From positions 4,099 to 68,098 of the forward strand of contig JAFGCH010000071.1 of assembly GCA_016932695.1 (NCBI GenBank): a stretch of DNA of 64,000 bases. The letters are read 5' to 3'. Below are positions 2,202-17,127 of the stretch, piece after piece. Made by a program: the position numbers and the translations under genes. Position 1 is the first letter of the stretch; each line of letters opens with the position of its first letter. The DNA comes from Acidimicrobiia bacterium (lineage in GTDB: Bacteria; Actinomycetota; Acidimicrobiia; Spongiisociales; UBA11373). The notes under the pieces are model-generated. The model did no database searches and was not told the DNA's origin. It saw only the letters and a list, made by a program, of their open reading frames with translations.

Positions 2202-4628
2202 CTACACCTCCACCTGCACGGCCACCACGGCTCCCGCCGGGGCGTAGGGCACCAGGGTGCCTTCGAGGTGGCGCCCATCCACGGTGACCCGCGGCGCGAC
2301 CCCGGTGCCGTGATTGGAGATTCCGATCCGGTAGGTGGCGCCTCGGCAGGAGCGCTCGACTTCGATTTCCGCGAGGTGGGCGGGGAGGCAGGGGGCGACG
2401 CGCAGCCCCTCCCACTCGGGCCGGACGCCCAGGAGGTGCTGGGTGATCGCCACCAGGTTCCAGGCCGCCGACCCGGTGAGCCAGGAGTTCTTGGCCTCGC
2501 CGTGCCGCGGGGCGTCCCGCCCGGCGATCATCTGGGCGTAGACGTAGGGCTCCAGGCGGTGGACCTCGGAGATCTCCTCGCGGAAGGCGGGGGCGATCTT
2601 GCTCCAGTACTCGAAGGCCCGCTCCCCGCGTCCCAGCCGGGTCTCGGCGATCACCAACCATGGGTTGGTGTGGCAGAAGACGCCGGCGTTCTCCTTGTAG
2701 CCGGGGGGATAGCTGGTGATCTCGCCCAGTTCGGGGTGATAGCGGGTGTAGGCGGGTTGGTGGAGCACCAGGCCGTGGGGGGTGTCGAGGCGGGCCCGCA
2801 CCGCGTCGAGGGCCCGGGCGGCCCGGCCGTCGGCCAAGCCCATGCCGGCCATCACACACATCCCCTGGGGCTCGATGTAGATCTGGCCTTCGGCGCACTC
2901 CCGCGAGCCCACCTTCTCCCCGAAGTAGTCGTAGGCCCGCAGGAACCACTCGCCGTCCCAGCCGTGGTCGGCCACCGCGGCGGTCATGCGAGCGGCCTCG
3001 GTGGTGGCGAGAGCGGCTTCTTCCGGCCTTCCGGCTGCTTGGGCCAGGCCGGCGTAGTCGGCAGCGGCATGGACGAACAGGCCGGCGATGAAGACCGACT
3101 CCGCGGTGCGCCCCGCCCGGTTCTGGGTGGTCTGGAAGGACTCGCCCGGCGCGCTGGAGAAACAGTTGAGGTTGAGGCAGTCGTTCCAGTCGGCCCGGCC
3201 GATGAGGGGGAGCCCGTGCGGCCCCAGGTTCTCCAGGGTGAAGTGGAAGGAGCGGCGCAGGTGCTCGAACAGGGTCGCGGCGTTCGCCGGGTCGTTGTCG
3301 AAGGGTACGGCCTCTTCGAGGATGGAGGGGTCGCCGGTCTCGCGCACGTAGGCCCCGGCGGCCTCGATCAGCCAGAGCGGGTCGTCGTTGAACCCGGAGC
3401 CGACGTCGTGGTTGCCCCGTTTGGTGAGGGGCTGGTACTGGTGGTAGGCGCTGCCGTCGGGGAACTGGGTGGCGGCGATGTCGAGGATCCGCTCCCGGGC
3501 CCGCTCCGGGACCAGGTGCACGAAACCCAGCAGGTCCTGGCAGGAATCGCGGAAGCCCATGCCCCGGCCGATGCCCGACTCGAAGTAGGAGGCACTGCGG
3601 GAGAGGTTGAAGGTGACCATGCACTGGTACGGATTCCAGGTGTTGACGATGCGGTCCACCCGGGGATCGTCGGAGCGCACCCGGCAGATGCCGAGCAGGC
3701 CCTCCCAGTAGGCCTTCAGGTCGGCGCGGGCTTCGTCTACGGCGACGGCGTCGGCGAAGCGGGCGAGGACGGCCCGTGCCGGGGCTTTGTTCGCCACGCC
3801 GGGGGCTTCCCACTTGTCCTCCGGAGGGACCTCGGCGTAACCCAGGACGAAGACCAGGTCGGCCTCTTGCCCCGGCGCCAGGCTCACCTCGACCTGATGG
3901 GAGGCGATGGGGAACCAGCCGCTGGCCCGGGAGTTGCAGGCCGCTCCGGCGAAGGGCACCTCGGGATGGTCCCAGCCGCGGCCCGGGCCGAAGAAGGCAT
4001 CCCGGTCGGTTTCGAAGCCGGCGAGGGGGGCATTCACCCCGTAGAAGGCGTAGTGGTTGCGGCGCTCCCGGTACTCGGTGACGTGGTAGATGGTGCTGCC
4101 TTCGACCTCGATCTCACCCAGGGAGAGGTTGCGCTGGAAGTTGGTCTGGTCGTCCAGGGCATCCCAGAGGCAGAACTCGATCAGGGAGAAGACCTGGATC
4201 TCCCGGCGCCGGCCGCTCCGGTTGCGCAGGCGCAGGCGATGCACCTCGGCGTTGGTCCCCATCGGCACGAAGTACAGGATTTCGGCCGCCAGGCCGTCGC
4301 GTTCGGCGGCTATCGAGGTGTAGCCGAGTCCGTGGCGGCACTCGTAGCGGTCCAGGGGGGCGCGCACCGGCGCCCAGGTGGGGCACCAGACCTCGCCGCC
4401 GTCGTTGAGGTAGAAGTAGCGGCCGCCGGTGTCGGCGGGGAGATTGTTGTAGCGGTAGCGGGTGAGGCGGCGCAGGCGGGCATCGCGGTAGAAGCAGTAG
4501 CCGCCTCCGGTGGAGGAGATCAGGCCGAAGAACTCCTCGGCACCCAGGTAGTTGATCCACGGGTGGGGCGTCTCGGGAGTGGTGATGACGTACTCCCGGG
4601 CGGCATCGTCGAAGTGCCCGAACCGCAT
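2202..4628 (-). CDS. GH94 glycoside phosphorylase (cellobiose/chitobiose phosphorylase-like)
   Basis: ORF 2202..4868 contains MRFGHFDD...[43 protein letters not shown]...GRYFYL, the conserved GH94 N-terminus, and is about 809 aa from the internal ATG at 4628. The upstream part of the listed ORF is GC-driven read-through. Confidence 0.85.
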
Positions 4629-4773
4629 CCCGTCCTCCCAGATTCGCCGGGGCCGCGCCGCCGAGCGGCGGTCGTGGGCCTGCGGCCAGGGTAGCCGGAC
4701 CGCCCCACCCCCAAAGGGCGCGGGAGGGGGAGAGGAACGGACTGCGGCGGCGGTCTGCCGCCCCGCAGCGAGG

Positions 4774-5469
4774 TCAGTCGTGCAGGCCGAAGCGATCGGC
4801 GATGGCCGCCGCCTCCTGTTCCCACAGCAAGCCGGGGTCGGGGTAAGCCCACTGGAGATGGCCGGCAACTTCGAGGGCGGCCAGGCCGTGCCAGTGCGCC
4901 CAGGCCCCCAGCATCACCGGCACGGCCGCTTCGGGGAAGCCGGGAGCGTGCCGGGTGATCTCGGCGGCTATCTCGGACTCCTCGGGGGTGGGGGGGCGCG
5001 CCGCGGGTGCTACCTGCAGCGCCCCACGGTTCCAGGCGTAGGCGGCGGTGCCGAAGAAGGCGTCGCCCATGCGGCGCACCGCGGCCACGGTGGGGCCATC
5101 TTCGGGGGCGGCGTACCCGGGGATGGGGGTGCCGAAGATGAGGTGGAAGCGGTTGGGGTGTCCCACCGCCCAATCGCGGTAGGCGAGAATGCCGGAGACG
5201 AGGCGCTTGCGGGGAGAGGGCCCGGCAACGCCGATGGCCTCCTCCACCGCGATGGCCAGGTCCAGGTAGGCGTCCGCCACCAGCGCAGTGAGCAGGGCGT
5301 CGCGGCCGTCGAAGTAGCGGTATAGGCCGGCCGGGCTCATCCCGATGGCGGCGGCCAGGCTACGGAGCGAGAGGTTGGGAGCGCCGCGGGCGGCGATCTG
5401 GGCCAGGGCCGCCTCTTTGATCTCGGCGAGAGTGGCTGCCCGATGCTGGGCACGTCGTCCGACCGGCAT
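4774..5469 (-). CDS. TetR family transcriptional regulator
   Basis: The C-terminal 231 aa of ORF 4774..6330 read [60 protein letters not shown], an N-terminal TetR HTH. ATG is at 5469. The rest of the listed ORF is artefactual. Confidence 0.85.
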
Positions 5470-5499
5470 GGCCCCAGCATAGCAGGCACCGTTTGCTCT

Positions 5500-5535
5500 G
5501 CGAACATGTATCGCTAATATGCGAGTAGCGTTCGC
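5500..5535. promoter_or_regulatory. imperfect palindrome GCGAAC-N5-TCGC-TAATAT-GCGA-N5-GTTCGC in the divergent TetR/oxidoreductase intergenic region; candidate TetR operator
   Basis: I read the nested inverted repeat directly: 6-bp outer arms and 4-bp inner arms, centred on an AT-rich core. It lies just upstream of the GGAGGAGAGAG RBS of the 5554 gene. Confidence 0.35.
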
Positions 5536-5553
5536 ATATCTAGGAGGAGAGAG

Positions 5554-6492
5554 ATGAGCGGTCTCCATGTGGTGTTGGGAGCGGGGGGCGGACTGGGTCG
5601 GGCCATCGCCGCCGAAGCAGCCTCCCGGGGTCTCCCGGTGCGGGCGGTCAACCGCGGGGGGGATGTCGACCTGCCCGGTGTGGCCGCGGTGGCCGCCGAT
5701 GTGGAAACGGCCGACGGAGCCGCCCGAGCCGTCAACGATGCCGGGGTGGTCTACATGGCCGCTCAACCCCCGTATCACGAGTGGCCGGGGAGGTTCCCCG
5801 GCATGCTGCGCACGGTCGTCGACGCCACGGCCGCCGCCGGTGCCCGGCTGGTGATGGTGGACAACCTCTACGGCTACGGACCGGACGCGGGACCGATGAG
5901 TGAGGCCGGTCCCGAGCGGGCGACCGATGCCAAGGGCCGGACGCGACGCGAGATGACCGGCTTGCTGCTCGCCGCCGACCGGGAGGGCCGGCTGCCGGTG
6001 CTCATCGGGCGCCTGTCGGACTACTTCGGTCCGCACGGCGACAACAGCACGGTTTCCGCCCTGGCGGTGATTCCGGGGGCCGCCGGCAAGCCCATCCGCT
6101 GGCCGGGCAGCCTGGACGCTCCCCACTCCGTGGCCTATCTGCCCGATGCCGCCCGGGCCTTCGTCACCCTCGCCGCCACCCCGTCGGCCTGGCGCCGTAT
6201 CTGGGTTCTGCCCCATGCCCCCGCCGTCACCGGCGGCGAGATTCTCGGCATGGTGAACCGGGCCTTGCCCCGGCCGGTGAAGACCGCCCGCCTGGGGATG
6301 GGCCTGCTCCGCCTGGCTGCCCCCTTCCACAGGCCTTCGCGGGAGATCCTGGGCATCGGCTACCAGTTCACCGCGCCGTTCGTGGCCGACGACGCGGCCT
6401 TCCGGCAGGCCTTCCCCGAGTTCGCCGTCACTCCGCTGGATCGGGCGATGGCCGAGACCGTCGCTTGGTACCGCAGCCGCCTCGCCGCCTAG
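5554..6492 (+). CDS. NAD(P)-binding oxidoreductase (NmrA-like / atypical SDR epimerase-dehydratase fold)
   Basis: It begins with the Rossmann motif VVLGAGGGLGRAIA and is 312 aa. It is divergent from the TetR gene, the classic regulator-target arrangement. Confidence 0.7.
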   Translation: MSGLHVVLGAGGGLGRAIAAEAASRGLPVRAVNRGGDVDLPGVAAVAADVETADGAARAVNDAGVVYMAAQPPYHEWPGRFPGMLRTVVDATAAAGARLVMVDNLYGYGPDAGPMSEAGPERATDAKGRTRREMTGLLLAADREGRLPVLIGRLSDYFGPHGDNSTVSALAVIPGAAGKPIRWPGSLDAPHSVAYLPDAARAFVTLAATPSAWRRIWVLPHAPAVTGGEILGMVNRALPRPVKTARLGMGLLRLAAPFHRPSREILGIGYQFTAPFVADDAAFRQAFPEFAVTPLDRAMAETVAWYRSRLAA

Positions 6493-6507
6493 ATGGGCGC
6501 CCCGGCC

Positions 6508-7281
6508 TCACTGCTCCAGCGCCAGTAGGGCCGCCCCGTAGGCGCCCATCAGCTGCGGATGCGGGGGCAGGACGACGGCCATCCCGGCGGCCTCCTCCAT
6601 CATCACCCGCACTCCGGCATTGAGGGCTACCCCGCCCGACAGGATCAGCGGCGGCTCCAGGCCCACGGTGCGGGCCATGGCCACGATGCGCCCCACCAGG
6701 GAGCGGTGCAGGCCCCGGATGATGGCGTCGAGGTCGGCGCCCCGGCCGATCAAGGAGATGATCTCCGACTCGGCGAAGACGGTGCAGGTCGAGGAGATGG
6801 GCTCCTCCTCTCGGGCCGCCAGCGCCCGGGTCCCGAGTTCGGCCACCGGGACCCCGAGGCGGCCGGCGGTGTGCTCCAGGAAGCGCCCCGTGCCGGCGGC
6901 GCACTTGTCGTTCATGGCAAAGTCCACCGGCCGGCCGCCCTCCCCGATGCGGATGGCCTTGGCGTCCTGGCCCCCGATGTCCACCAGGGTGCCGCCGTGG
7001 CCCAGGGCTCGGAACACGCCCCGGGAGTGGCAAGTGATCTCGGTGACGCAGCGCACCGCCACCCGGACGAGTTGGCGCCCGTAGCCGGTGGCCACCACGG
7101 GAGGCGGCTCTGCCGTCCCGAGGTCCGCGGCCAAGGCGGCCACCATCGCCGCCGCCTGCTCCTCCAGGCGGGGTCGGGTCGCCTCGAGGCGGGAAGCCAC
7201 CAACGTGCCGGTGGCGTCCACCGCCACCGCCTTGCAGGTGGTGGACCCGGCATCGACCCCGAAAGCCAGCACTCGACTCAT
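6508..7281 (-). CDS. CoA-substrate-specific enzyme activase (BadF/BadG/BcrA/BcrD / HgdC-like ATPase)
   Basis: MSRVLAFGVDAGSTTCKAVAVDATG... is the acetate/sugar-kinase-fold N-terminus typical of HgdC activators. ATG is at 7281 and the gene is about 257 aa. Its start overlaps the stop of the upstream gene (ATGA). Confidence 0.8.
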   Translation of the reverse strand: MSRVLAFGVDAGSTTCKAVAVDATGTLVASRLEATRPRLEEQAAAMVAALAADLGTAEPPPVVATGYGRQLVRVAVRCVTEITCHSRGVFRALGHGGTLVDIGGQDAKAIRIGEGGRPVDFAMNDKCAAGTGRFLEHTAGRLGVPVAELGTRALAAREEEPISSTCTVFAESEIISLIGRGADLDAIIRGLHRSLVGRIVAMARTVGLEPPLILSGGVALNAGVRVMMEEAAGMAVVLPPHPQLMGAYGAALLALEQ

Positions 7282-8597
7282 CCCCCCATCATTTCCACGA
7301 AGGCCTCCAGCCGCCCGGCGGCCTGCTCGGCGGCGAAGGCACGGGGGTCGTTGTGGTCGGCGTCGAGGAGCAACGCCGGCACCCCGACCTGGTTGACCAG
7401 CCCGTCGCGCTGGTCGATTTGGCCCAGCGAGTAGGGCTTGCAGGAGCGGTCGGAATGCAGGATGACGCCGTCGGCGGAGAAGTTGCGCACCATGGCGCGC
7501 ATCGCCTCGAGCTTCTGCCCGGCGGAGCGGTTGAGGATGGGGTGCAGGTAGACCCGGGCCATGGATGCGAAGGGGTTCGCCGGGTCCATCAGCGGGGCCA
7601 GTTCCCCCCAGGCGTGAGCGTAGGTGGAGGCCACGACGTTCACCCCGCGCTGCGCCAGCCACTGCGACAGTGGGCCGAGCCGGTACCAGATGGGCAGGTT
7701 GTCCCACAGCACCCGGTAGCGCTCCTCCCGAACGGCACCCACCCCGGAGGCGATGCGCCGGTCCACTTCGGCGAGCAGCATCCGGTAGTAGTCGGTGGTG
7801 GCCTGCTCCCCGCGCAGGTCCACGATGGGCCCCAGGTGGGTGAAGGCATCGAAGGCGGTAAGGGGGGAGGGGCGGTGGCGGGCCCGCTCCAGGATCTCCA
7901 GCCAGGTCTCGCTGGCCTCCTTGGCCCGGGCTACCACCCTGATGAACTCCTGTTCCGAGAAGGGCCGGCGGGCCGCTCGCTCGGCGACGGGCACGATGTC
8001 CTCCAGTTGACGGCGGACGTAGGCCACCTCGTGGGGCTGTGGCTGCGGCCCGTACTGGAAGGGAGTGTCCACCAGCAGCAGCGGGCAGCCGAAGTGGTCC
8101 GCCAGCACGCGGTACCAGTAGAGCACCGTCTGGCAGATGTTGGTGCAGCAAAGGAGCAGGTCGGGGCGGGGTAGGCGGCCGACCGGGGTCTCCCCGGAGA
8201 GGAGGGAGCCGATGTCGGTGCGGGCGTAGGAGCATATGTCGCGCGAGTAACCGGCGTCCTCGGCCACCTCGCACAGGTGCTGGGCCCGGCGGCGGGCGCC
8301 GCACAGGGCGGCATGGTTCTCCGGGTAGATAACGAAGAACCCCAGGGTGAGCAGGATCTCGGTGGGGGCGCCGCTGGTTACCCAGGCCACGGGACGCACC
8401 CCGGAGGCGTGGCGTCCCTCCAGGTAGTGGCCCGACATCATCTCCTTCATGCGGGTGATGCTGCGCAGCGGGGGGGCCAGCGGCCGCTCCGGGTCGCCGA
8501 AGCGGCGGTTCAGGCGCCGCTCATCCCGATAGCGCTGCAGGCGCAGTAGCGGTCGGCCGGCCAGCCGGTAGCCCAGCAGATGCCCCAGGCGGCTCAT
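7278..8597 (-). CDS. 2-hydroxyacyl-CoA dehydratase family protein (HgdA/BcrB-like subunit)
   Basis: The product from MSRLGHLLGYRLAG..., about 439 aa, carries conserved Cys-containing segments (ICSYARTDIG, LLLCCTNICQT). Its stop overlaps the downstream activase start and its start overlaps the upstream gene. Confidence 0.8.
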   Translation of the reverse strand: MSRLGHLLGYRLAGRPLLRLQRYRDERRLNRRFGDPERPLAPPLRSITRMKEMMSGHYLEGRHASGVRPVAWVTSGAPTEILLTLGFFVIYPENHAALCGARRRAQHLCEVAEDAGYSRDICSYARTDIGSLLSGETPVGRLPRPDLLLCCTNICQTVLYWYRVLADHFGCPLLLVDTPFQYGPQPQPHEVAYVRRQLEDIVPVAERAARRPFSEQEFIRVVARAKEASETWLEILERARHRPSPLTAFDAFTHLGPIVDLRGEQATTDYYRMLLAEVDRRIASGVGAVREERYRVLWDNLPIWYRLGPLSQWLAQRGVNVVASTYAHAWGELAPLMDPANPFASMARVYLHPILNRSAGQKLEAMRAMVRNFSADGVILHSDRSCKPYSLGQIDQRDGLVNQVGVPALLLDADHNDPRAFAAEQAAGRLEAFVEMMGG

Positions 8598-9673
8598 TGC
8601 AGCGTCTCCATGAACGCCTCCAAGCGGGTGAGGGTCTGCTGGCTGAGGCCCCCGCCCAGTTCGACCTCCAGGTGGAGCAGGGGGTAGCCGGCGGCGCCCA
8701 GATGGGCCCGCAAGCGGGGGATGTCGAACAGCTCCGGCTCGCAGAACTTGGGGTCGTAGATCACCAGGCCGCGGGCGCCGGTGGCCCGCAGCCGGGTCAG
8801 CAACTCCTGTGCTCGGGCGGCGATGGGGTCCCCGCGGGTCGGGTCGGGGGGGCCGCCGAGCAGCCGGGCGGCGAGGCGCTCGTACGGGTCGCCCCCGTCC
8901 TCGAGCGGGTAGACACGCCGCCACCCGCTCGCCAGGTCGTCGGCCACCACCCGGGCTCCCATGGCGGCGAGGTGTTCGAAGAGGTCGAGGGGCTCGGCCA
9001 CGATGCCCGACAGCATGAGGGGTAGGCCCCCGGGTGGGTCCCCGGCAGGGAGAGACCCGGCGACGGCGGTGAAGTCCTCGGCGGCAAGGAACTCCCGGGA
9101 GCGCACCACCGCGTAGAAGTCACGGTCGGTGACGGCCAGGCCCGCCCGGCGGGCAAAGAGGGAGGCCAGCGCCCGGTCGGCGGCGCCCTCGGCGGCGAAG
9201 GCTTCTTCCCAGGCGTCGTCGTCGGGGACCTTTCCGGAGATCCCCGCCAGGGACTCGGCCAGCCGATGCAGCTCGGCCGCCAGGAACTCCCCATCGACCG
9301 GCCGGCGGCCGCGGGGCAGGTAGAGGGTGAGGACCGGCGGGGTGGGCCGCACGAAGTCGCCGAGCACCGACCCCATCCCCTGGAGGGCGTCGCAGGTGTG
9401 GGGGATGAGTAGGGCATCCACCGTGTCGAGCCCGCCCTGCAGCAGGAAGGAGGTGGCGCGCACCACGATGTCGCAGGTGTAGGCCTGGAAGTGGCGGCTG
9501 CCTTCGTCGCGGGACACCCCCGGCGGGCCCCAGAGCTCGACGGGGTGGAAGCCGTGGGCGCGCAGCAGCGGGCGGGGGTAGTGGTAGGGAAGGACTCCGG
9601 CGACTCGGAGCCCGGTGGCGTGGGCGCGGGCCACGACCTCGCGACGGGTGGGCAGGACGGGCCTGGCGGTCAT
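8594..9673 (-). CDS. 2-hydroxyacyl-CoA dehydratase family protein (HgdB/BcrC-like subunit)
   Basis: This 359-aa product contains HFQAYTCDIVVRATSFLL...IPHTCDALQG, the Cys motifs of the family. It is translationally coupled to the next gene. Confidence 0.75.
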   Translation of the reverse strand: MTARPVLPTRREVVARAHATGLRVAGVLPYHYPRPLLRAHGFHPVELWGPPGVSRDEGSRHFQAYTCDIVVRATSFLLQGGLDTVDALLIPHTCDALQGMGSVLGDFVRPTPPVLTLYLPRGRRPVDGEFLAAELHRLAESLAGISGKVPDDDAWEEAFAAEGAADRALASLFARRAGLAVTDRDFYAVVRSREFLAAEDFTAVAGSLPAGDPPGGLPLMLSGIVAEPLDLFEHLAAMGARVVADDLASGWRRVYPLEDGGDPYERLAARLLGGPPDPTRGDPIAARAQELLTRLRATGARGLVIYDPKFCEPELFDIPRLRAHLGAAGYPLLHLEVELGGGLSQQTLTRLEAFMETLQ

Positions 9674-9752
9674 GCCGGGCCCATTCTGGTCCTTCGGTTC
9701 CGGGCGACGGAGGGAGTTTCCGCCCGGCGCAGCCTACGGCCCGGGCCGGGGC

Positions 9753-11198
9753 CTACTTCTCGCAGTCCTGCTCGTTCTCCGCCTTGCAGGTGTCGGTCCC
9801 CGCTCCTCCCTTGGTGGTGTCGATCTGCTGGCCGCCGATGAGGGTGTCGTTCCCGGTGCCCCCGATGAGCACGTCGTTGGCCCGCCCGCCGCAGACGAAG
9901 TCGCCGCCGCCCTTGCCTTCGTAGCGGTCCCGGCGGCCGAAGAGGTATACCACGTCGCTCCCCGCCGTCCCGGTGAGCCGGTCGGGGCCGTCGGTGCCGC
10001 GAACATTGATCGTTCGCCCGGCGCACATCTGATAGACGTAGAGGCGGGCCGGGATGCCGAACGCGCCGAACTTGAGCGGGGCCCCGGCCACCGCCCGTTC
10101 CTCGGCGAGAGCCACCGCTCCGCCGAAGTACTCGGTGTCGTCGCCGATGAGGTCGGTGCCCACGATGCGCTCCCAGCGCCACTTGCCGGCGGCCCGCTCA
10201 CCCAGATACACGGCCCCCGGCGGATCGGCGATCAGCACCCGCCCCCCAGCCGCCGCCAGATCGCTGCCGAAGGCCCCGGTCGGCGCGGGGGAGGGCGTTT
10301 TCCTCTCGAGGTACGCCCAGGTGGACCCGGACTTCCTCAGCACGAACAAGTCGTCTCCCGACGCTCCCACATAGATGAGGTCGCGGTCTATGGCCACCGC
10401 CCGGCCGAATACCTGTAAGGGGCTGTATCCGTCGGGGGAGAGGATCTTCTTGGAGGCCCAGGTGGTGCTGCCCTTGGTGAAGATCACCACCGCATTCGCC
10501 CCGGTGGCGCCGGCGACCACGGTGTCCCCCTGCACGGCGACGTCGGCTCCGAGGAACCCGTTGAGGGTCGGCTCGGCGTGGGTCAGGGTGGCGGTGTGGG
10601 ACCACACGCCGCCGGCGCGCTCGAATACGTACACCGCTCCGTCGAGGCTCCCGGCCTCATCGTCGGCGACCACCAGACGGTCGCCGTCTATGTCGACCCG
10701 GTAGCCGAAGTGGCTGGTGGCCCCGGCGGGGGCAGCCAGGATGGTCTCCTGCCACACCGCCCCGGCTTTGGTGTAGACGTACGCCTTCCCCCGGTTCCAG
10801 GTGCCCACCACCACCGTGGTGCCCGAGACCGCCACGCTTGTGCCGAAGAAGAGGAGCGGCGAGCCGTCGGAGGGGCTGAGGGTCGCCTCGGGCAGGCACC
10901 CCGCCGCCCGGCCGCAGCGGAACAGGTAGACCCGGCCGATCTTGTCCGTGTTGGTGCCCAGGCCCGGCTGGGGACCGTAACCGGGGGCTCCGGCTGCAAC
11001 CAAGATGCCGTCGGCGTCCACGGTGGCCAGGTCACCGAAGTCGGCGTAGTAGTCACCGTGGACCGTGTCGGCTTCGGGATTGTCGATACGGTCCTCCGCC
11101 GCAGCGGACACCGCCCGCCCGGGTGGGGCTCCCGCCGCCGGGGCTCCGGCCAGAGCCAGGAGAGCAAACAGGACCGCGACGGTTACGGCGCGCCGCAT
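9753..11198 (-). CDS. secreted FG-GAP (integrin-alpha-like beta-propeller) repeat protein with C-terminal RTX-type Ca-binding GGxGxD repeats
   Basis: It has a signal peptide (MRRAVTVAVLFALLALAGAPAAGA) and repeated FGxxVAxxGDxxVVGA / YVF motifs. The C-terminus carries GGTGNDTLIGG and GGAGTD. It is 481 aa. Confidence 0.7.
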   Translation of the reverse strand: MRRAVTVAVLFALLALAGAPAAGAPPGRAVSAAAEDRIDNPEADTVHGDYYADFGDLATVDADGILVAAGAPGYGPQPGLGTNTDKIGRVYLFRCGRAAGCLPEATLSPSDGSPLLFFGTSVAVSGTTVVVGTWNRGKAYVYTKAGAVWQETILAAPAGATSHFGYRVDIDGDRLVVADDEAGSLDGAVYVFERAGGVWSHTATLTHAEPTLNGFLGADVAVQGDTVVAGATGANAVVIFTKGSTTWASKKILSPDGYSPLQVFGRAVAIDRDLIYVGASGDDLFVLRKSGSTWAYLERKTPSPAPTGAFGSDLAAAGGRVLIADPPGAVYLGERAAGKWRWERIVGTDLIGDDTEYFGGAVALAEERAVAGAPLKFGAFGIPARLYVYQMCAGRTINVRGTDGPDRLTGTAGSDVVYLFGRRDRYEGKGGGDFVCGGRANDVLIGGTGNDTLIGGQQIDTTKGGAGTDTCKAENEQDCEK

Positions 11199-11230
11199 AG
11201 GCGTCTCCTTGGTGAGCGTGGCTGCAGAGG

Positions 11231-12217
11231 CTAGTCGCCGCTCTCGGTCGCCCGGTGCGGGGCGCCGGCGGGGTTTCGGCGTCGGGGCCGGCAGGTGTAG
11301 AAGGTGTGGCCTTCGTGCTGCTTCGCTACCAGCAGGCCGCCGGCCAGGAGGTTCTCCACGACCTCCCAGGTGGCGCCTTTGCGCTGCAGGAGGTCGCGAA
11401 CCGCTTCCTCACGCATGGGGTGCACGGCGCAGATACCGACCAAATCCCGGCCCACATCGCCGGAGGAGGCAAAGGCTCCTTCCTCGGGAGTGAACAGGTA
11501 GAAGACCTGGGGGAGCCGCTCCTCGAAGATGCTCCTTGCCTCGGCCACGGCGGCGGCGCCGGGGGCGGTGACCCCGGGCAGGGCGGTGGGGCGCAGGGGC
11601 AGCGCCAGGTGAGCCTCGGCCACCTGCGCTTCCATCAGGAAGTCGGCGGTAGCCTCGATCCGGGCCGGGTCGTCGTTGTACCCGGCGACCAGCATGGTCT
11701 CCGAGGCCAGGGTGCCGCGGAAGCGGGCGGCGAAGCGGCGGATCCCGTCGAGGATCTCGGGGAGGCGCAGAGCGGGGTGGGGACGGTTGAGGCGGCGCCA
11801 GGCGGCCTCGTCCACGGTGTCGACCTTCAGGGAGACCCAGTCGGCCGTCTCCAGGGCGGCGGATACTTCGGGCCGCCACACCAGCGAGGCGTTGCTGATG
11901 ACGGCGATGGGGATACCCAGGGGGCGGAGCCGGGCGATGGCCTCACCGAGGTTGGTGTCCAGCGTCGGCTCGCCGTCGGGAACGAACGTGAGGTAATCGA
12001 TGGCTTCCCCGGCGGCGGTGATCGCCGCCACCCTCTCGGCCACTCGCTCCACCACCTCAGTGGCCGGATAGAAGGCCCGGGGCTCCAGGGAGCGGTCCGT
12101 GGTGGCCCCCACTTGGCAGTAGACGCAGGCGTAGGTGCACACCTTGGGGGGGATGTTGTTGATCCCCAGGCTGCGCCCCAGCCGGCGGGAGGGCACCGGG
12201 CCGAAAGCGATCTCCAT
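11231..12217 (-). CDS. radical SAM domain protein
   Basis: MEIAFGPVPSRRLGRSLGINNIPPKVCTYACVYCQ contains the CxxxCxxC motif 27 aa from the ATG at 12217. The protein is about 328 aa with no C-terminal SPASM Cys cluster. The N-terminal 71 aa of the listed ORF are probably not translated. Confidence 0.8.
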   Translation of the reverse strand: MEIAFGPVPSRRLGRSLGINNIPPKVCTYACVYCQVGATTDRSLEPRAFYPATEVVERVAERVAAITAAGEAIDYLTFVPDGEPTLDTNLGEAIARLRPLGIPIAVISNASLVWRPEVSAALETADWVSLKVDTVDEAAWRRLNRPHPALRLPEILDGIRRFAARFRGTLASETMLVAGYNDDPARIEATADFLMEAQVAEAHLALPLRPTALPGVTAPGAAAVAEARSIFEERLPQVFYLFTPEEGAFASSGDVGRDLVGICAVHPMREEAVRDLLQRKGATWEVVENLLAGGLLVAKQHEGHTFYTCRPRRRNPAGAPHRATESGD

Positions 12218-12253
12218 GTCGTCTCCTCGGTAGCGGGCCGCCGCCCTCAGTAT

Positions 12254-12269
12254 CGTCCCCGGGGGGACG
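12254..12269. promoter_or_regulatory. inverted repeat CGTCCCC-GG-GGGGACG in the divergent promoter region between the radical SAM and NifX-like genes
   Basis: I read this 7-bp perfect inverted repeat with a 2-bp spacer directly. It is the only obvious symmetric element in the 175-bp intergenic region. Confidence 0.25.
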
Positions 12270-12392
12270 AGCGGCGGCGGCTTCCCGCCGTTGCCCGGAC
12301 GCGGGGGACGAGTTGAGGCCCGGGCGCCCGGCGCTACCCTCCCGCCCGGGCCGCCCGGCGCGGCCCGCCGACCCCTAAAAGGAGACCTCCGG

Positions 12393-12797
12393 ATGAAGAT
12401 CGCCGCCGTGTCGGAAAACGGCCGCACCATCGCCCAGCACTTCGGCCGGGCTCCCTACTACGTGGTGGTCACGGTAGAGGAGGGTGTGATCGTCCTGCAG
12501 GAGACGCGGGCCAAGGTCGGCCACAACGATTTCGCCGGGGGCACCGATCCCGGCCCGGGGGCCAAGCACCGCGCCATGGCAGACACCATCGGAGACTGTG
12601 CCGCCCTGCTCGCCGGCGGCATGGGGAGCGGAGCCTTCGCCGCCCTGCAGGCAGCCGGCATCGAACCGGTTCTCACCGACGAACGCGACATCGAGGCGGC
12701 CGCGGTGCGCTACGCCCGGGGCGAGCTGCCGAACCTGGCGGCCCGCCTCCATCAAGGCCGGGGGGAGCGCCACCACCGGCACGAGCATGACGACTGA
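12393..12797 (+). CDS. dinitrogenase FeMo-cofactor-binding domain protein (NifX/NafY/NifB-C-terminal-like, PF02579-type)
   Basis: MKIAAVSENGRTIAQHFGRAPYYVVVTVEEG...CAALLAGGMGSGAFAALQAAGIEPV is the typical fold signature. ATG at 12393 is preceded by AAAAGGAGA. Confidence 0.75.
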   Translation: MKIAAVSENGRTIAQHFGRAPYYVVVTVEEGVIVLQETRAKVGHNDFAGGTDPGPGAKHRAMADTIGDCAALLAGGMGSGAFAALQAAGIEPVLTDERDIEAAAVRYARGELPNLAARLHQGRGERHHRHEHDD

Positions 12798-13308
12798 GGT
12801 CCCCCGAGGCTCTGCGGGAGTCCCTCCGCGTCCGTTCTGCTTCATCGGGGTGGTCCACAGCCCCTTCCTCACCCCTAGTGGGACTCCGGCGCAGCCCGCG
12901 TATGCGGGGCCCGATGCCGTCGGCACCGTGGAGGTCTTCGAGGAGTACGCCGCCGGCTTGGAAGACCTCGACGGCTTTGAGCGCATCTGGGTGGTGTCTT
13001 GGTTCCATCGGGCGGGGGCGGCCCGCCTGCGGGTGATCCCTTACCTGGATTACGAGGAGCGGGGCCTGTTCTCCACGCGGGCACCGGCTCGCCCCAATCC
13101 GATCGGCATCTCCGCGGTGCGGCTGCTGCGACGCGAGGGGCGGCGGCTGCATGTGGCCGACCTCGACCTCATCGACGGCACCCCCGTCCTCGATCTGAAA
13201 CCCTATGCCGCCGCCTTCGACTCGTACCCGGGGAGCGGCGAGGGTTGGCTCCGAGGCCGCAAAGACGCCGATGGCCGAGGTGACGATCGATTCACCGCCG
13301 GCCCGTGA
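12787..13308 (+). CDS. TsaA/YaeB-like SAM-binding protein (tRNA m6t6A37 methyltransferase family)
   Basis: FCFIGVVHSPF...ERIWVVSWFH...FSTRAPARPNPIGISAVRLL...LDLIDGTPVLDLKPY are the family motifs. The ATG at 12787 overlaps the 3' end of the NifX-like gene by 11 nt. Confidence 0.8.
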   Translation: MTTEVPRGSAGVPPRPFCFIGVVHSPFLTPSGTPAQPAYAGPDAVGTVEVFEEYAAGLEDLDGFERIWVVSWFHRAGAARLRVIPYLDYEERGLFSTRAPARPNPIGISAVRLLRREGRRLHVADLDLIDGTPVLDLKPYAAAFDSYPGSGEGWLRGRKDADGRGDDRFTAGP

Positions 13309-13376
13309 GCGCCCCCGGCTTCCTTGGGGCCGACTGATCGGCCAGAATCACGGCCAGCAACTCCGGAGGTAGCAGC

Positions 13377-13877
13377 ATGCGGGTGTTGGTCGTCGCGGCG
13401 AGCAAGCACGGGTCTACTGCCGAGATCGCTACGGCCCTGGGAGAGGCCCTGGCGCGGCGGGGGCTCAGTACCACCGTGGCCGACGCGCGGGACGTAGCGG
13501 ATATCGAGGAGTACGACGCCGTCGTGCTGGGGAGCGCCGTCTATGCCGGCCGGTGGCAGAAGGCTGCGCGGGAATTGGCCGAGACCCACGGCGAGTTCCT
13601 TCGGTCCCGGCCGGTGTGGCTCTTCTCCAGCGGGCCGGTGGGCGATCCGCCCAAGCCCGAGGAAGACCCTGTAGACGTGGCGCAGATCACCACCATCGTC
13701 GGTTCCCGCGGCCACCGGGTGTTCGCCGGGAGGCTCGACAAGAGTCGGCTGAGCCTGGCAGAGCGGGCGATCGTGCGCTCTCTCAAGGTTCCCGAGGGGG
13801 ACTGGCGCAACTGGGATGAGATCGCCGCCTGGGCGGGGGAGATCGCCGACGCGTTGGCAGGAGGCGCCGCCGGCTGA
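13377..13877 (+). CDS. flavodoxin-like protein
   Basis: MRVLVVAASKHGSTAEIATALGEAL...YDAVVLGSAVYAGRW is the flavodoxin / HemG-like FMN-binding fold. It is 166 aa. Confidence 0.75.
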   Translation: MRVLVVAASKHGSTAEIATALGEALARRGLSTTVADARDVADIEEYDAVVLGSAVYAGRWQKAARELAETHGEFLRSRPVWLFSSGPVGDPPKPEEDPVDVAQITTIVGSRGHRVFAGRLDKSRLSLAERAIVRSLKVPEGDWRNWDEIAAWAGEIADALAGGAAG

Positions 13878-13901
13878 CTCGGGGCTCGCTCTACCCCGGG
13901 C

Positions 13902-14018
13902 TCAGCGGCCCCGGCGACGCTGCACGGCCCGCCCCGCGCCGGTACCGGCGGCCAGGACGCCCAGGCCCAGGGAGAGGAAGAGGGTCAGGCTGATCAGGAT
14001 GCTGGTGAGGGTGGTCAC
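13902..14018 (-). CDS. candidate small membrane protein (38 aa, GTG start)
   Basis: (GTG)TTLTSILISLTLFLSLGLGVLAAGTGAGRAVQRRRGR is a single hydrophobic helix with a basic tail. The third-codon positions are G/C in 35 of 37 codons, a strong coding signature in this genome. The SD spacing is poor. Confidence 0.3.
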   Translation of the reverse strand: MTTLTSILISLTLFLSLGLGVLAAGTGAGRAVQRRRGR

Positions 14019-14160
14019 GCCCCTGTGACGCCCCGCTGCCTTCGGCCGGTTCCCCGCGCCGGCTGGTGCCCCGCCGGGTAGCCTCCCCCAACTTGGTCGG
14101 GGAGCCGGTAATCGGCTGCCGGCGGTGGAGCGAACCTGAGGAGCAGCCCTCAGACGGCAC

Positions 14161-14579
14161 ATGCTGGGCGCGAGAGAAGGGGTCGAAGCGGCCCCGGGCG
14201 AGGCCGGCGACTTGGCCGAGGCGACGGCCGACTACGTGCGCCGCCTGCGGGCGGAGACCTTCGGGCCCGCCATCGACAGCATGGGCCACCGCACTTTCGA
14301 CGAGGCCATCGCGTTGGCTGGCGCCACCGCATGCGGCCTGGGGCGTTGCTGCGCACCGACGCTGCCCGGCCGGCCGGGCGGCTCTTCGAGGCGGTGCGGG
14401 CGGGGACCGTGTGGGGCAACGGCCCCCTTACCGACAACTTCGCTGGTCCCTTCGGCGGCCTGAAGGCCGGCGGGAACGCCCGGGAACTGGGGGAAAGGAA
14501 CCGGGAGGGCTTCCTCGAATCCGAACACGTCCGTTGGGACTTCGAGGATGCCCCTAACGGCTGGTGGCACCCGTGCTGA
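14161..14579 (+). pseudogene. 3' remnant of an aldehyde dehydrogenase gene (frameshifted, lacking the first ~350 codons)
   Basis: Two overlapping frames carry the ALDH C-terminus. ORF 14161.. holds ETFGPAIDSMGHRTFDEAIALAG. ORF 14331..14579 holds RAGTVWGNGPLTDNFAGPFGGLKAGGNARELGERNREGFLE. A frame switch near 14340 joins them. No upstream ALDH sequence exists, because the flavodoxin gene ends at 13877. Confidence 0.6.
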
Positions 14580-15705
14580 GCCGGGCGCGGCCCGCGCGGC
14601 GGCGGGCGCCTTCGAGCATCAGGGCTCCGGCGAGCACAGCCGCGACGATCGCCAGGAAGGTCGGGGCCGCCACCCGAGCGCCGATGCCCCAGGCCAGGCC
14701 GGCAACCACTCCTGCAGCCACCGCCCTCTCGGCCGGCAGGTGCCGGGTGGGGCGCCTATGGGCGATGGAGAAGGCGATGAGGACTGCTCCGATGCCCCCG
14801 GCCACGGCGGTGAGGCCGAAAGGCTCCAGATGCTCCGCAGGATGCTGGACGGCCTCTTCGAGTCCGGCGGCAAAGGTCACGATGCCTGCGACCAGCGGGA
14901 AGTGGGCGAAGGTGAAGAGGTCCCGGGCGACATGCCCCAGGTCGTGCAGATCGCGAGCGGCACCCAGCGCCCCTTCGGCAACTGCCTGGAACCAGTCGAA
15001 GTAGGCCCACCACAGCGCGGCGATGAGGGCGACGGCCAGGCCCACAGTCAAGGCCTGGGTGCCGGCTAGGCCTATCCGTGCCGCAGTGACTCCGACCGCG
15101 ATGATCGACTTCCCCAGGGCGATGATCACGATGAGCCCGTGGCGCTCCGCAAAGTGATCCGGGGCCACCCGGAATTCACCCCGCCCGGCTGCCAGAGCAC
15201 TGGCCACGTCTATCGCGGCAGCCGTCAGCTAGATCCAGGGACGGGCTTGCGGCGCGGCGAAACCCCCGGCGAGCACCACCGCCGGCGGCACGACTGCCAC
15301 CGGCAAGTAGGCGCGCAAGCCGGTGCAGTGATCGGGGTCGTGGCGCGGACCCAGACCGTACAGAGCTAGGCAGGCCAGGCGGACCAGGGCGTAGGGAACG
15401 GCGAACCAGGCTCCGGTGGCCCCGTAGGCCTCCGGGATGGCGGTTGCCACCAGGAGCGTCGCCGCGGTCGCCGCCAGGATCGCGGCTCGCCCACCGCGGC
15501 GGTTCAGGTCGATGGCGTTGCCGGCCCAGGTGTACTGGGACCAGGCCCACCAGACCAGCCACGCCATGAGCCCCGCCCGGCCCCAGCCTCCCAGGGTGTG
15601 ATCGGCCCGCAGCATGGCCGCCAGCTGGGTCACGGCGAATACGAAGACGAGGTCGAAGAAGAGCTCCAGGAAGGAGGCCCGCTTGGGGATTCCGCTCCCG
15701 CTCAC
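14554..15705 (-). pseudogene. LtrA (low temperature requirement A) family membrane protein interrupted by a single in-frame TAG at 15229..15231
   Basis: ORFs 15229..15705 (SFLELFFDLVFVFA, an LtrA signature) and 14554..15207 (FAERHGLIVIIALGKSI) are in the same frame. I translated the junction as ...QARPWI*LTAAAIDVASALAAG. Together they make about 383 aa, the normal LtrA length. Confidence 0.65.
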
Positions 15706-16331
15706 CGCCGGATCACCGCGAAGGCGAAGTCACGTCCCCAGCCCCGGCGGAAGGCGAGCCAGATCCACAGCGAGGCGAAGTTCTCGACGATGGCGACGGC
15801 TTCCGATCCCCCGAGGTCCGCTACTTCGAAGCCGAGGTCCGCGGCTAGGGCGGCTACCACCGACCGGCCCGCGTCGTCCCCGGCGATGGGGAGCACCGGA
15901 CGGGCGCTGCCGAAGCTGCCTCCTTCCAGGTGCTCGGCCCCGATGGTGTTGAACGCTTTGACCACTGCCGCGTCGGGGAACAGCGAAGCTACGAAGGCCC
16001 CTTGGGTGGTGAACGGGGCCGGCGGCGCGGTCGCCACTGCGTTGGTGGCGTCGACCACTACCACGCCGGGAAGAGGGCCGATTTCGGCGGCGGTGGCGGC
16101 GACGGCGGCAGCAGGAACGGCCAGCACGACCACGTGGGCGTCGCGACTCGCCCGGGCGCGAGAGGCCAGCGTGATGGCCGGCTGGGCGGCAACCGCAGCA
16201 CGGGCCGACTCGCCGTCGGGGCGGGCCGTCCCCAGACTGACTTCATGCCCCGCAGCGGCCAGGCCCCGCGCCAGAGCGGTGCCGACCCTCCCGGCTCCGA
16301 TGATTCCGATTCGCTTGACCGTAGCTGCCAT
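15702..16331 (-). CDS. npdG: NADPH-dependent F420 reductase
   Basis: MAATVKRIGIIGAGRVGTALARGLAAAGHEVSLGTARPD is the NpdG/Fno Rossmann N-terminus. It is 209 aa. Its stop overlaps the ltrA start (ATGA). Confidence 0.75.
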   Translation of the reverse strand: MAATVKRIGIIGAGRVGTALARGLAAAGHEVSLGTARPDGESARAAVAAQPAITLASRARASRDAHVVVLAVPAAAVAATAAEIGPLPGVVVVDATNAVATAPPAPFTTQGAFVASLFPDAAVVKAFNTIGAEHLEGGSFGSARPVLPIAGDDAGRSVVAALAADLGFEVADLGGSEAVAIVENFASLWIWLAFRRGWGRDFAFAVIRR

Positions 16332-16362
16332 GCGCTACCTCTTCGTCTGGTACCCCGAAGGG

Positions 16363-17127
16363 TCAGTCTGCCGTTACCAGCCCGTAGCCGGAGCCGAAGG
16401 TGGCCCGGATCACCCGGGCGCCCTCCGGGGAGTCGAGAGTGAGGGAGCGGGCGACTGCCGCCGGGGGGATCAGGGCGGTCCACTTGAGGTCCAACTCCAC
16501 GCCGTCTAGGTGCAGCGACCCGGCGCGGACCGACAGGATCCCGCCCTCGCCCTCCCCGAGCTCCCAGGAGAAGACCGCCCCCGCGTCCAGCGTGGTGTCG
16601 GTGAAGCGGCGGACGTCGCAGTGGACGGGGAGGGGAGAGCGGGGGCCGACCATCTCGCGGGTTGCCACGCCCGGGCCTTCCGGGTAGACGGGCATGTCCT
16701 CACGGCGCAGCACCTCGAAGCTGGTCTCTTCGGGTATGGGGTCGGTGGCGGCTACCAGGATGTAGATCTCGGCATCCACCTCCCCGTGGTTCCACTCCTG
16801 GTGGACCATGCCCCGCATGCCCTCGGTGAAGCGGGCCAAGGCGCCCTCGGGCACGTGCCCGGAGATGCCGTTGCGGGCATCGTCGTGGTCGAAGGTGCCG
16901 CGCTCGAGGTAGAAGAGGCGCTCGTGGTACCGGTGGGGGTGGTGGCCGATGCCGAGGCCGGCGGCGATGACCGAGTCGTGCACGGTGACCAGGGGGCCGC
17001 AGGCGCGGACGCGGGTGAACGGGCCGATCGATTCCACGGCGGCCAGGCCGGGTACGCCGAAGTCCTCGGGCCCGAGGATGGCGTGGTCCTCGGGGGCCAG
17101 CGCCACGACAGGGGGGTGGGGTTCCAT
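16363..17127 (-). CDS. pirin family protein (bicupin)
   Basis: HPHRYHERLFYLERGTFDHDDARNG is a cupin His motif. ATG at 17127 (MEPHPPVV) gives about 254 aa. Confidence 0.8.
   Translation of the reverse strand: MEPHPPVVALAPEDHAILGPEDFGVPGLAAVESIGPFTRVRACGPLVTVHDSVIAAGLGIGHHPHRYHERLFYLERGTFDHDDARNGISGHVPEGALARFTEGMRGMVHQEWNHGEVDAEIYILVAATDPIPEETSFEVLRREDMPVYPEGPGVATREMVGPRSPLPVHCDVRRFTDTTLDAGAVFSWELGEGEGGILSVRAGSLHLDGVELDLKWTALIPPAAVARSLTLDSPEGARVIRATFGSGYGLVTAD

Follow-up and report, generated by a model that had tools for sequence, protein, structure and literature searches.

The subject of this analysis is a stretch of 64,000 nucleotides (the window) from an Acidimicrobiia metagenome-assembled genome (MAG), whose nearest relatives are from metagenomes of mud, sediment and deep lakes. 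Between positions 6508 and 13877 it carries eight genes, listed in Table 1. An earlier reading of this DNA (the original prediction) grouped them into one possible system, built around a 2-hydroxyacyl-CoA dehydratase-like enzyme with its activase (HgdB, HgdA and HgdC) and a radical S-adenosylmethionine (SAM) protein, here called rSAM. We conclude that the region is probably not one pathway, and that it consists instead of two independent modules lying side by side, together with one unrelated insert. Judged by sequence, the first (module A, HgdB-HgdA-HgdC, hereafter HgdBAC) appears to be an uncharacterised member of the 2-hydroxyacyl-CoA dehydratase type, and the second (module B, consisting of rSAM, a NifX-like protein and a TrmO_N protein) a reduced module of the orange-protein (ORP) type.

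Conservation and layout of the two modules

About 170 related loci were compared in total. A scan with the alpha subunit (HgdA) over genomes limited to one per species gave 512 relatives. The best 80 of them (56–91% identical) were examined, and are referred to here as HGD loci. A metagenome scan with rSAM found at least 80 loci, mostly 50–58% identical; metagenome loci come without taxonomy. Both surveys, of 80 loci each, are weighted to the closest relatives. The flanking open reading frames (ORFs) were clustered de novo, and the partner families were confirmed by Pfam.

One question raised by the original prediction was whether seven of the genes travel together. The two surveys give a negative answer. 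A hidden Markov model (HMM) specific for the rSAM family has no match, at a threshold as loose as E<=10, in the 80 HGD loci, which total 1.1 Mb, and there are no HGD genes in any of the 80 rSAM loci. The NifX-like and TrmO_N genes are also absent from the HGD loci outside one Acidimicrobiia clade. The single system is therefore mostly unsupported, and is replaced by two modules that are conserved separately. The FG-GAP/RTX gene, which was likewise assigned to the system, is in neither module. It codes for a protein with a signal-peptide-like N-terminus, it is missing from all 80 HGD loci, and elsewhere it was found only in L085, a closely related metagenome contig whose genes run NifX-rSAM-FG-GAP. 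It is a lineage-specific insertion into a variable slot between the modules.

The adjacency of modules A and B is confined to one Acidimicrobiia clade, comprising the window, L001, L007, L008, L084 and the near-identical metagenome contigs L085 and L168. What is constant in the clade is that a block of NifX and Flavodoxin_5 neighbours the HgdBAC block. The slot between NifX and HgdB varies, and contains rSAM and FG-GAP (window, L085), a NAD-epimerase (L001), rSAM/TrmO_N/DUF364 (L084) or nothing (L007, L008). In the sister MAG GCA_964548475.1, the modules are on different contigs: HgdBAC, NifX and Flavodoxin_5 are on contig 9 (L007), and a full module B is on contig 11 (L165).

Several points weigh against this reading. 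The NifX-like and Flavodoxin_5 genes stay beside HgdBAC in all five or six of the clade members sampled, whose HgdA sequences are 76–91% identical. Because HgdBAC keeps these two genes even where a full module B is present elsewhere in the genome (L007 compared with L165), a local functional link within the clade is possible, for example as an electron donor for the activase. Co-transcription of rSAM, FG-GAP and HgdBAC is also possible, since the gaps between them are only 32 and 79 nt and a canonical terminator was not found. Finally, the neighbourhoods compared cover 8–10 kb on either side of the query gene rather than whole genomes, and genes in the retrieved loci were called heuristically, as the longest ORFs ranked by cross-locus BLAST.

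These points have to be set against what the broader readings require. If all seven or eight genes made up one system, rSAM and the NifX-like protein would supply the HgdAB-like enzyme with a special metallocofactor, by building or delivering it, with help from the TrmO-like protein and the flavodoxin. The genes are adjacent with tight junctions, L084 has the same parts, differently ordered, and double-cubane relatives of the HgdAB family do carry unusual clusters. However, the alpha and beta subunits have ordinary three-Cys motifs rather than the seven-Cys motif of the double-cubane cluster protein (DCCP), rSAM has neither auxiliary-cluster Cys nor specific similarity to NifB, and the two surveys and the sister MAG separate the modules. 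We regard this reading as very improbable.

A link restricted to this clade, in which Flavodoxin_5 donates electrons to the activase, perhaps together with the NifX-like protein, while rSAM and TrmO_N are passengers, is doubtful. Flavodoxin_5 and NifX flank HgdBAC in the window, L001, L007, L008, L084 and L168, and Flavodoxin_5 has no counterpart in the full module B clusters L165–L167, in the distant rSAM loci or in the remaining HGD loci. Alone among the components, it is associated with HgdBAC and not with module B. Activators of the HGD family are reduced by flavodoxin or ferredoxin (PMC7317905). On the other hand, the synteny is restricted to close relatives and could be plain inheritance, three of the five layouts have other genes inserted between the two blocks, and the trio has no flavodoxin near it in other Acidimicrobiia or in other phyla. 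The protein itself belongs to the Flavodoxin_5 family, so that the predicted flavodoxin is correct as to family, but it is of the HemG-related type and not a classical low-potential flavodoxin; nor is it HemG itself, matching the HemG model NF008316 with 38 bits (cut-off 142) over residues 1–89 only. Flavodoxin is moreover equally a standard reductant of radical SAM enzymes. Flavodoxin_5 could therefore be the reductant of the activase in this clade, and could equally be that of rSAM, or be there by inherited synteny.

The gene structure of the region is confirmed. The G+C content of the window is about 71%, and antisense artefacts therefore crowd raw ORF lists, so genes were delimited by the phase of third-position GC (GC3), and their families were then checked with Pfam and NCBIfam. 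All eight genes were recovered with the coordinates and families originally proposed (Table 1).

Table 1. Genes and intergenic region between 6508 and 13877, with positions in the window and the family matches that identify them.
Feature	Module	Position	Strand	Evidence
Activase (HgdC/HadI-like ASKHA ATPase), single gene	A	6508-7281	-	PF01869 178 bits; TIGR00241 225 (cut-off 125)
Catalytic alpha subunit (HadB/HgdA-like)	A	7278-8597	-	PF06050 234 bits
Beta subunit (HadC/HgdB-like)	A	8594-9673	-	PF06050 162 bits
Secreted FG-GAP/RTX repeat protein	neither	9753-11198	-	FG-GAP_2 91 bits; HemolysinCabind 37 bits
Radical SAM protein (rSAM), labelled COG0731 by JGI	B	11231-12217	-	PF04055; motif CTYACVYC
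Divergent intergenic region rSAM/NifX, 175 bp		12218-12392	.	carries motif GCTACCCTC at 12333-12341
Nitro_FeMo-Co protein (NifX-like/ORP-like carrier)	B	12393-12797	+	PF02579 66 bits
Stand-alone TrmO_N (TsaA/YaeB-like) SAM-binding beta-barrel	B	12787-13308	+	PF01980 122 bits; TIGR00104 126 (cut-off 93)
Flavodoxin_5 protein, not placed in either module		13377-13877	+	PF12724 84 bits

The junctions, read from the sequence, are also as described in the original prediction. On the minus strand, the gap of 32 nt between rSAM and FG-GAP contains AAGGAG, the gap between FG-GAP and HgdB is the one of 79 nt, and HgdB/HgdA and HgdA/HgdC each share an ATGA overlap. On the plus strand, NifX starts 175 bp from the divergent rSAM gene and overlaps TrmO_N by 11 nt, with a gap of 68 nt from TrmO_N to the flavodoxin gene. 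A scan for sigma-70 promoters and terminators gave no promoters, and terminator-like sites at chance level, and an Rfam scan of 5–18 kb (for example for the Moco riboswitch) gave one sub-threshold chance match only.

Two short sequences in this layout are of interest. The motif GCTACCCTC lies on the plus strand about 52 nt upstream of the NifX ATG, and includes a TANNNT-type hexamer, TACCCT. It is common to L084, L086 and L007, and in L084 it is also found upstream of the DUF364-TrmO_N operon; the window has two occurrences, where chance predicts 0.46. The motif may serve module B genes as a common promoter or operator. The second sequence, just before the HgdB start, is conserved as ACAATGGCCnCCGCATG in the relatives L007, L008 and L084. 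The version in the window, AGAATGGGCCCGGCATGA at 9674-9690, forms a mini-ORF of four codons, whose stop overlaps the HgdB ATG. Its retention, despite the presence of FG-GAP only 79 nt upstream, points to a translation or regulatory signal belonging to HgdBAC itself.

The DNA on either side was also inspected. Right beside the flavodoxin gene, at 14205-16376, is a patch that is decayed or rearranged relative to the close relative L168, with 87–91% nucleotide identity to L168 in the flanks on both sides. Here an aldehyde dehydrogenase gene present in L168 is mostly lost, leaving about 110 C-terminal codons that are frame-broken (14236-14573), and there is about 1.8 kb of different DNA, with a truncated LtrA gene at 15229-15705 (158 aa, compared with a profile of 356 positions). 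Downstream of the activase lie genes for a NAD-epimerase-family protein (convergent), a TetR regulator, a GH94 protein of the cellobiose/chitobiose-phosphorylase type and an amidase (744-2195, 2202-4628, 4774-5340, 5554-6492). The amidase gene, and an aldo-keto reductase (AKR) gene in the relatives, are syntenic with HgdBAC inside the clade (L007, L039), and have no obvious functional link to it.

The dehydratase-type module

Module A has two adjacent paralogous PF06050 subunits, alpha of about 440 aa and beta of about 360 aa, followed by a single activase gene. This is the architecture of the dehydratase systems HadBC/HadI of Clostridioides difficile (3O3M, 4EHT), HgdAB/HgdC, FldBC/FldI and LcdAB/LcdC. 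The alpha subunit matches HadB (PDB 3o3m_A) over nearly its full length (1e-67, 232 bits), and the beta subunit matches HadC (3o3m_B) at 1.5e-25. The best PDB matches of the activase are MbdQ, HadI (4eht) and HgdC (1hux), all about equal. An overlong HgdA match in some loci was considered as a possible intein; this was rejected, as the extra length is the paralogous HgdB gene.

The cluster ligands are in place. HadB and HadC each have one [4Fe4S] cluster, held by three Cys (PMC7317905). Alpha residues Cys121, Cys150, Cys154 and Cys385 are conserved in 80–81 of 81 clade members and align with the HadB Cys, and beta residues Cys67, Cys94 and Cys311 are invariant in 65 out of 65 sequences and align with the HadC Cys. 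By this alignment, both subunits are of the three-Cys type, three of the four alpha residues being the presumed ligands. Loss of these residues would have spoken against the assignment originally made; instead they are conserved. The activase keeps both of its cluster Cys, in the contexts KCAAGTGRF and STCTVFAESE, as in MbdQ, HadI and HgdC. One further residue, alpha Cys98, is invariant in all 81 clade members and is Val in HadB, and is therefore specific to this clade; it lies near the cluster-binding segment. On this evidence HgdBAC is, as predicted, a complete enzyme of the 2-hydroxyacyl-CoA dehydratase type with its activase. The equivalog cut-offs are widely missed, however (268 bits against 750 for the HadB model, 92 bits against 700 for HadC), and a substrate can therefore not be assigned from the sequence match.

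The domain architecture, the ligands, the gene coupling and the two independent patterns of conservation are direct observations. The chemistry of module A can be proposed by analogy with the biochemistry of HadBC/HadI and HgdC, as summarised in PMC7317905. The activase would be a homodimeric ASKHA protein with a bridging [4Fe-4S] cluster, reduced by a low-potential donor, and would spend ATP on the transfer of one electron to the alpha/beta heterodimer, in which each subunit would hold one three-Cys [4Fe-4S] cluster. The unique Fe of the alpha cluster would bind the thioester carbonyl of the substrate, a ketyl radical would form, and the 2-hydroxyl group would then be eliminated (beta-elimination), or added in the reverse direction.

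It has to be asked whether HgdBAC could instead be an ATP-dependent reductase, of the benzoyl-CoA reductase or double-cubane type, acting on a CoA ester or a small molecule. The class I benzoyl-CoA reductases (BcrABCD, BzdNOPQ, MbdNOPQ; 8S02, 9G87) belong to the same superfamily in both their catalytic and their ATPase subunits, and by analogy would share the ATP-driven injection of a low-potential electron. DCCP and its reductase DCCP-R (CHY_0487/0488; E. coli YjiM/YjiL; 6ENO, 7YYL) share the fold family and the activase type of module A. Some details fit: the activase scores marginally best against MbdQ, a subunit of 3-methylbenzoyl-CoA reductase (187 bits, compared with 180 for HadI), alpha has two extra invariant Cys, C98 and C150, and no CoA-transferase or 2-hydroxyacid dehydrogenase is adjacent. 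The alpha subunit is, however, far closer to HadB (232–268 bits) than to MbdO, BzdO and BcrB (110–178) or DCCP (23–54). The class I models are not reached (TIGR02260, 178 bits, cut-off 487; TIGR02263, 66 bits, cut-off 421), and these enzymes have four subunits, two of them distinct ATPases, where module A has one ATPase gene. DCCP is a homodimer with an [8Fe-9S] cluster, for which a seven-Cys motif is required (PMC7317905), whereas module A is a heterodimer; the motif, CX19CX18-19CX29CX166-170CX32-34CX32C, is not present in alpha or beta, and NF040772 scores 54 bits (cut-off 350). Finally, the neighbours of the clade are of the fatty-acyl type, and there are no dienoyl-CoA hydratase, ring-cleavage or other aromatic-ring pathway genes among them. 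A reductase is therefore improbable, and a dehydratase-type enzyme is the preferred assignment.

The genomic distribution of this dehydratase-type enzyme differs from that of HadBC/HadI. The HGD loci come from at least seven phyla, and include Acidimicrobiia, Myxococcota/'delta proteobacteria', Binatia, Anaerolineae/Thermoflexia, WOR-3, Hippea, Aquificales and others. Counted by locus, the unit is preserved in 80 out of 80: in all HGD loci with enough sequence the beta gene is directly upstream of alpha, and in nearly all the activase follows. The genes that accompany HadBC/HadI in fermentation, for a CoA-transferase, a 2-hydroxyacid dehydrogenase, ETF and acyl-CoA dehydrogenase, are not nearby. 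In the 64 kb of the window there is no CoA ligase or CoA-transferase that could supply a CoA ester, and no ETF, acyl-CoA dehydrogenases or Mo/W enzymes. Elsewhere, a FadD-like AMP-dependent acyl-CoA ligase gene adjoins the trio in 21 of the 80 HGD loci, often directly upstream of beta, and also in L170. Other recurrent partners are SDRs, AKR, a NAD-epimerase-family protein, a DegV/FakA-like protein and a thiamine diphosphate (ThDP) enzyme, which has 2-hydroxyacyl-CoA lyase/synthase (HACL) and oxalyl-CoA decarboxylase among its best matches of solved structure. Three more contigs with Pfam annotation show the trio with enoyl-CoA hydratase (ECH) and acyl-CoA dehydrogenase (ACAD), the order ligase-trio-MMPL-MMPL, and the trio alone.

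On the basis of these neighbours in other phyla (FadD-like ligase, HACL-like ThDP enzyme, ECH/ACAD, MMPL and DegV/FakA), the substrate of module A is probably a CoA ester that is fatty-acid-like. A literature search returned nothing relevant on the HGD clade in Acidimicrobiia or Myxococcota.

It is worth adding that in the Myxococcota loci L014–L031, about 5–9 kb upstream of HgdB, there is a block of ligase, SDR, AKR, SDR, NAD-epimerase and HACL-like ThDP genes, present in at least 11 MAGs. This block is a candidate 2-hydroxyacyl-CoA (alpha-oxidation-like) gene set.

The radical SAM, NifX-like and TrmO_N genes

The family of the rSAM protein is large, and more than 8000 matches at 55–60% identity occur in Gammaproteobacteria and Chloroflexi. 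The only conserved Cys of rSAM are those of the CX3CX2C motif, and it appears as a minimal core resembling PFL-AE, with no Cys for auxiliary clusters. No NCBIfam model reaches its cut-off, and a search of the PDB by sequence gave nothing significant; no characterised orthologue of rSAM was found.

Two specific identities were tried and rejected. NifB is a radical SAM protein fused to a NifX-like domain, and the original prediction saw an echo of this, in split form, in the pairing of rSAM with the NifX-like protein. However, rSAM is not matched by NifB models and has no ligands for the K-cluster, PFL-AE, RlmN and viperin score equally well, and no nif genes are present. The label given by JGI to the COG of this family, 'wyosine synthetase', led to a comparison with TYW1, and neither the TYW1-specific fold with a second cluster nor a Wyosine_form domain was found. 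The resemblances of rSAM are thus a generic series, in which only the CX3CX2C Cys are kept, and neither the split NifB nor the TYW1 label is supported. The exact rSAM and alpha-subunit proteins have NCBI entries, and the names there, 'radical SAM protein' for rSAM and '2-hydroxyacyl-CoA dehydratase' for the alpha subunit, are generic.

The NifX-like protein has weak matches to the C-terminal domain of NifB, to MrpORP and to NifX. Its gene adjoins that of rSAM in the window, L084, L085 and L086. The C-terminus (12760-12797) is His-rich, ending ...GERHHRHEHDD, a feature that is also found in L001 and L084 and resembles the tails of Ni/Co/Zn metallochaperones.

The TrmO_N protein had been described as TsaA(YaeB)-like. 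This is true of its TrmO_N domain, which scores above the TIGR00104 cut-off, but only the N-terminal domain is there. The protein has 173 aa and covers only residues 14–150 or so of TrmO enzymes of 237–247 aa; the C-terminal domain of the E. coli, P. aeruginosa and H. influenzae enzymes is not present. Its best PDB match is the uncharacterised single-domain archaeal protein AF_0241 (2nv4), with which it shares the N-terminal SAM-binding beta-barrel domain, as it does with TrmO/YaeB. Unlike TrmO/YaeB, it is in an operon with a NifX-like gene and not with tRNA-related genes, and its kin elsewhere are in operons with DUF364, NifX and rSAM (L084 and L165–L167 among the loci). DUF364 itself is absent from the window by tblastn, though it is beside TrmO_N in L084 and L165–L167. 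In its only characterised case DUF364 is a family of SAM-cyclising enzymes (PMC12930334), and it has been linked genomically to Mo/W transport (PMC2954201; bioRxiv 2024.03.05.583561). PF01980 is known in fusions with FmdE domains (PMC2954224).

The association of these three genes, noted in the original prediction, recurs across distant taxa. The co-directional operons of rSAM elsewhere contain NifX-like genes, Mrp/ParA-type ATPases, MinD-type ATPases with two ferredoxin motifs, and TrmO_N. Further partners are a SAM methyltransferase, CooT, FeS_assembly_P, CGGC, an IscU-like protein, ZIP and FeoB. The enrichment was measured with family HMMs, using 44 rSAM loci of at least 6 kb, with 63 HGD loci of at least 6 kb as the control. 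NifX-like genes were found in 21/44 rSAM loci and 3/63 controls, TrmO_N in 11/44 and 1/63, and Mrp in 22/44 and 0/63; the NifX-like and TrmO_N matches in the control all come from the window's own clade. When the rSAM loci were de-replicated at 75% rSAM identity, leaving 22 lineages with loci of at least 6 kb, NifX-like genes were present in 12, TrmO_N in five, and one or the other in 14.

These figures bear on whether module B is a module at all. TrmO_N could have the housekeeping role of a tRNA m6t6A methyltransferase, and rSAM could be another housekeeping enzyme with no relation to it, the NifX-like gene being nearby by chance. TIGR00104 is indeed passed, and some rSAM homologues are in unrelated contexts (ferritin, catalase, SufBD, cytochrome bd). 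Against this, the enrichment is strong, the rSAM loci have at least seven different co-directional architectures, the C-terminal domain of TrmO is lacking, and TrmO_N is translationally coupled to NifX in the window and to DUF364 in L084 and L165–L167. We therefore consider chance proximity unlikely, and continue to treat the three genes as module B.

The gene content seen around rSAM in other taxa corresponds to that of the neighbourhood of the ORP complex of Desulfovibrio, which contains the ATPases Orp3 and Orp4 with ferredoxin motifs, PF02579 proteins and MrpORP (PMC6345978). In the D. vulgaris complex (Orp3, Orp4, Orp5, Orp8 and Orp9/MrpORP), PF02579 proteins are central, as in module B, and loci of the rSAM family elsewhere share further parts with it: MinD-type ATPases with two ferredoxin motifs, Mrp/NBP35 and DUF134. 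Unlike the ORP complex, the window has neither MinD-Fd nor Mrp ATPases, and the PF02579 gene is the only one of the set; it also has a radical SAM protein, TrmO_N and Flavodoxin_5, which the described complex does not. A literature search gave nothing relevant on rSAM in ORP clusters. Module B in the window appears to be a minimal, reduced form, lacking the ATPases, of an ORP-type set for handling metals or iron-sulfur (FeS) clusters that is widespread in anaerobes.

A fuller version is seen in L165, which has the gene order AFOR, DUF364, TrmO_N, NifX, NifX, NifU_N, two MinD-Fd, DUF134 and rSAM, and then FeoAB; L166 and L167 resemble it. In this locus (4705-16255 of CAZJRF010000011.1), a tungsten-type AFOR and a C_GCAxxG_C_C protein are beside module B, and an iron-dependent repressor follows as well as FeoAB. 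The L165 context hints at a connection of module B with Mo/W or Fe.

Judged from these contexts, module B would act, by handling or modification, on a metal, on an FeS cluster or on a ligand derived from SAM. We suggest that the NifX-like protein may carry a ligand or cluster that rSAM modifies, and that the flavodoxin is a plausible reductant for this step.

Implications

If the region is indeed two modules, it is not a new seven-gene pathway, and represents two conserved and uncharacterised enzyme sets. A joint proposal can be put forward tentatively, and is rather unlikely to hold: rSAM, NifX, TrmO_N and, in sister loci, DUF364 would form an undescribed metallocofactor branch and, separately, HgdBAC would form an O2-independent route of 2-enoyl-CoA/2-hydroxyacyl-CoA metabolism. 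In the first part, rSAM, TrmO_N and DUF364 would be the SAM-users of an ORP-type accessory branch, beside metal or cluster carriers and genes linked to Fe, Zn, Ni and Mo/W, and the role of this branch would be to synthesise or insert either a ligand derived from SAM or a modified (hetero)metal-sulfur cluster. In the second part, we speculate that the HgdBAC clade functions with the FadD-like ligase and the HACL-like enzyme in anaerobic alpha-oxidation of fatty acids, or in the metabolism of 2-hydroxy fatty acids.

Three annotation labels should not be accepted as they stand: 'wyosine synthetase' at JGI, 'TrmO' at NCBI, and any inference of a NifB-like function.

The HgdA clade is present in more than 500 species-level genomes, from phyla that are not fermentative, and is coupled to genes of the fatty-acyl type. 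If the proposed assignment is true, the substrate of module A would extend dehydration by ketyl radicals beyond the fermentation of amino acids. The rSAM family has no solved or studied member, and it is repeatedly tied to carriers of the NifX/ORP type; it would thus provide a handle on ORP-type clusters in anaerobes.

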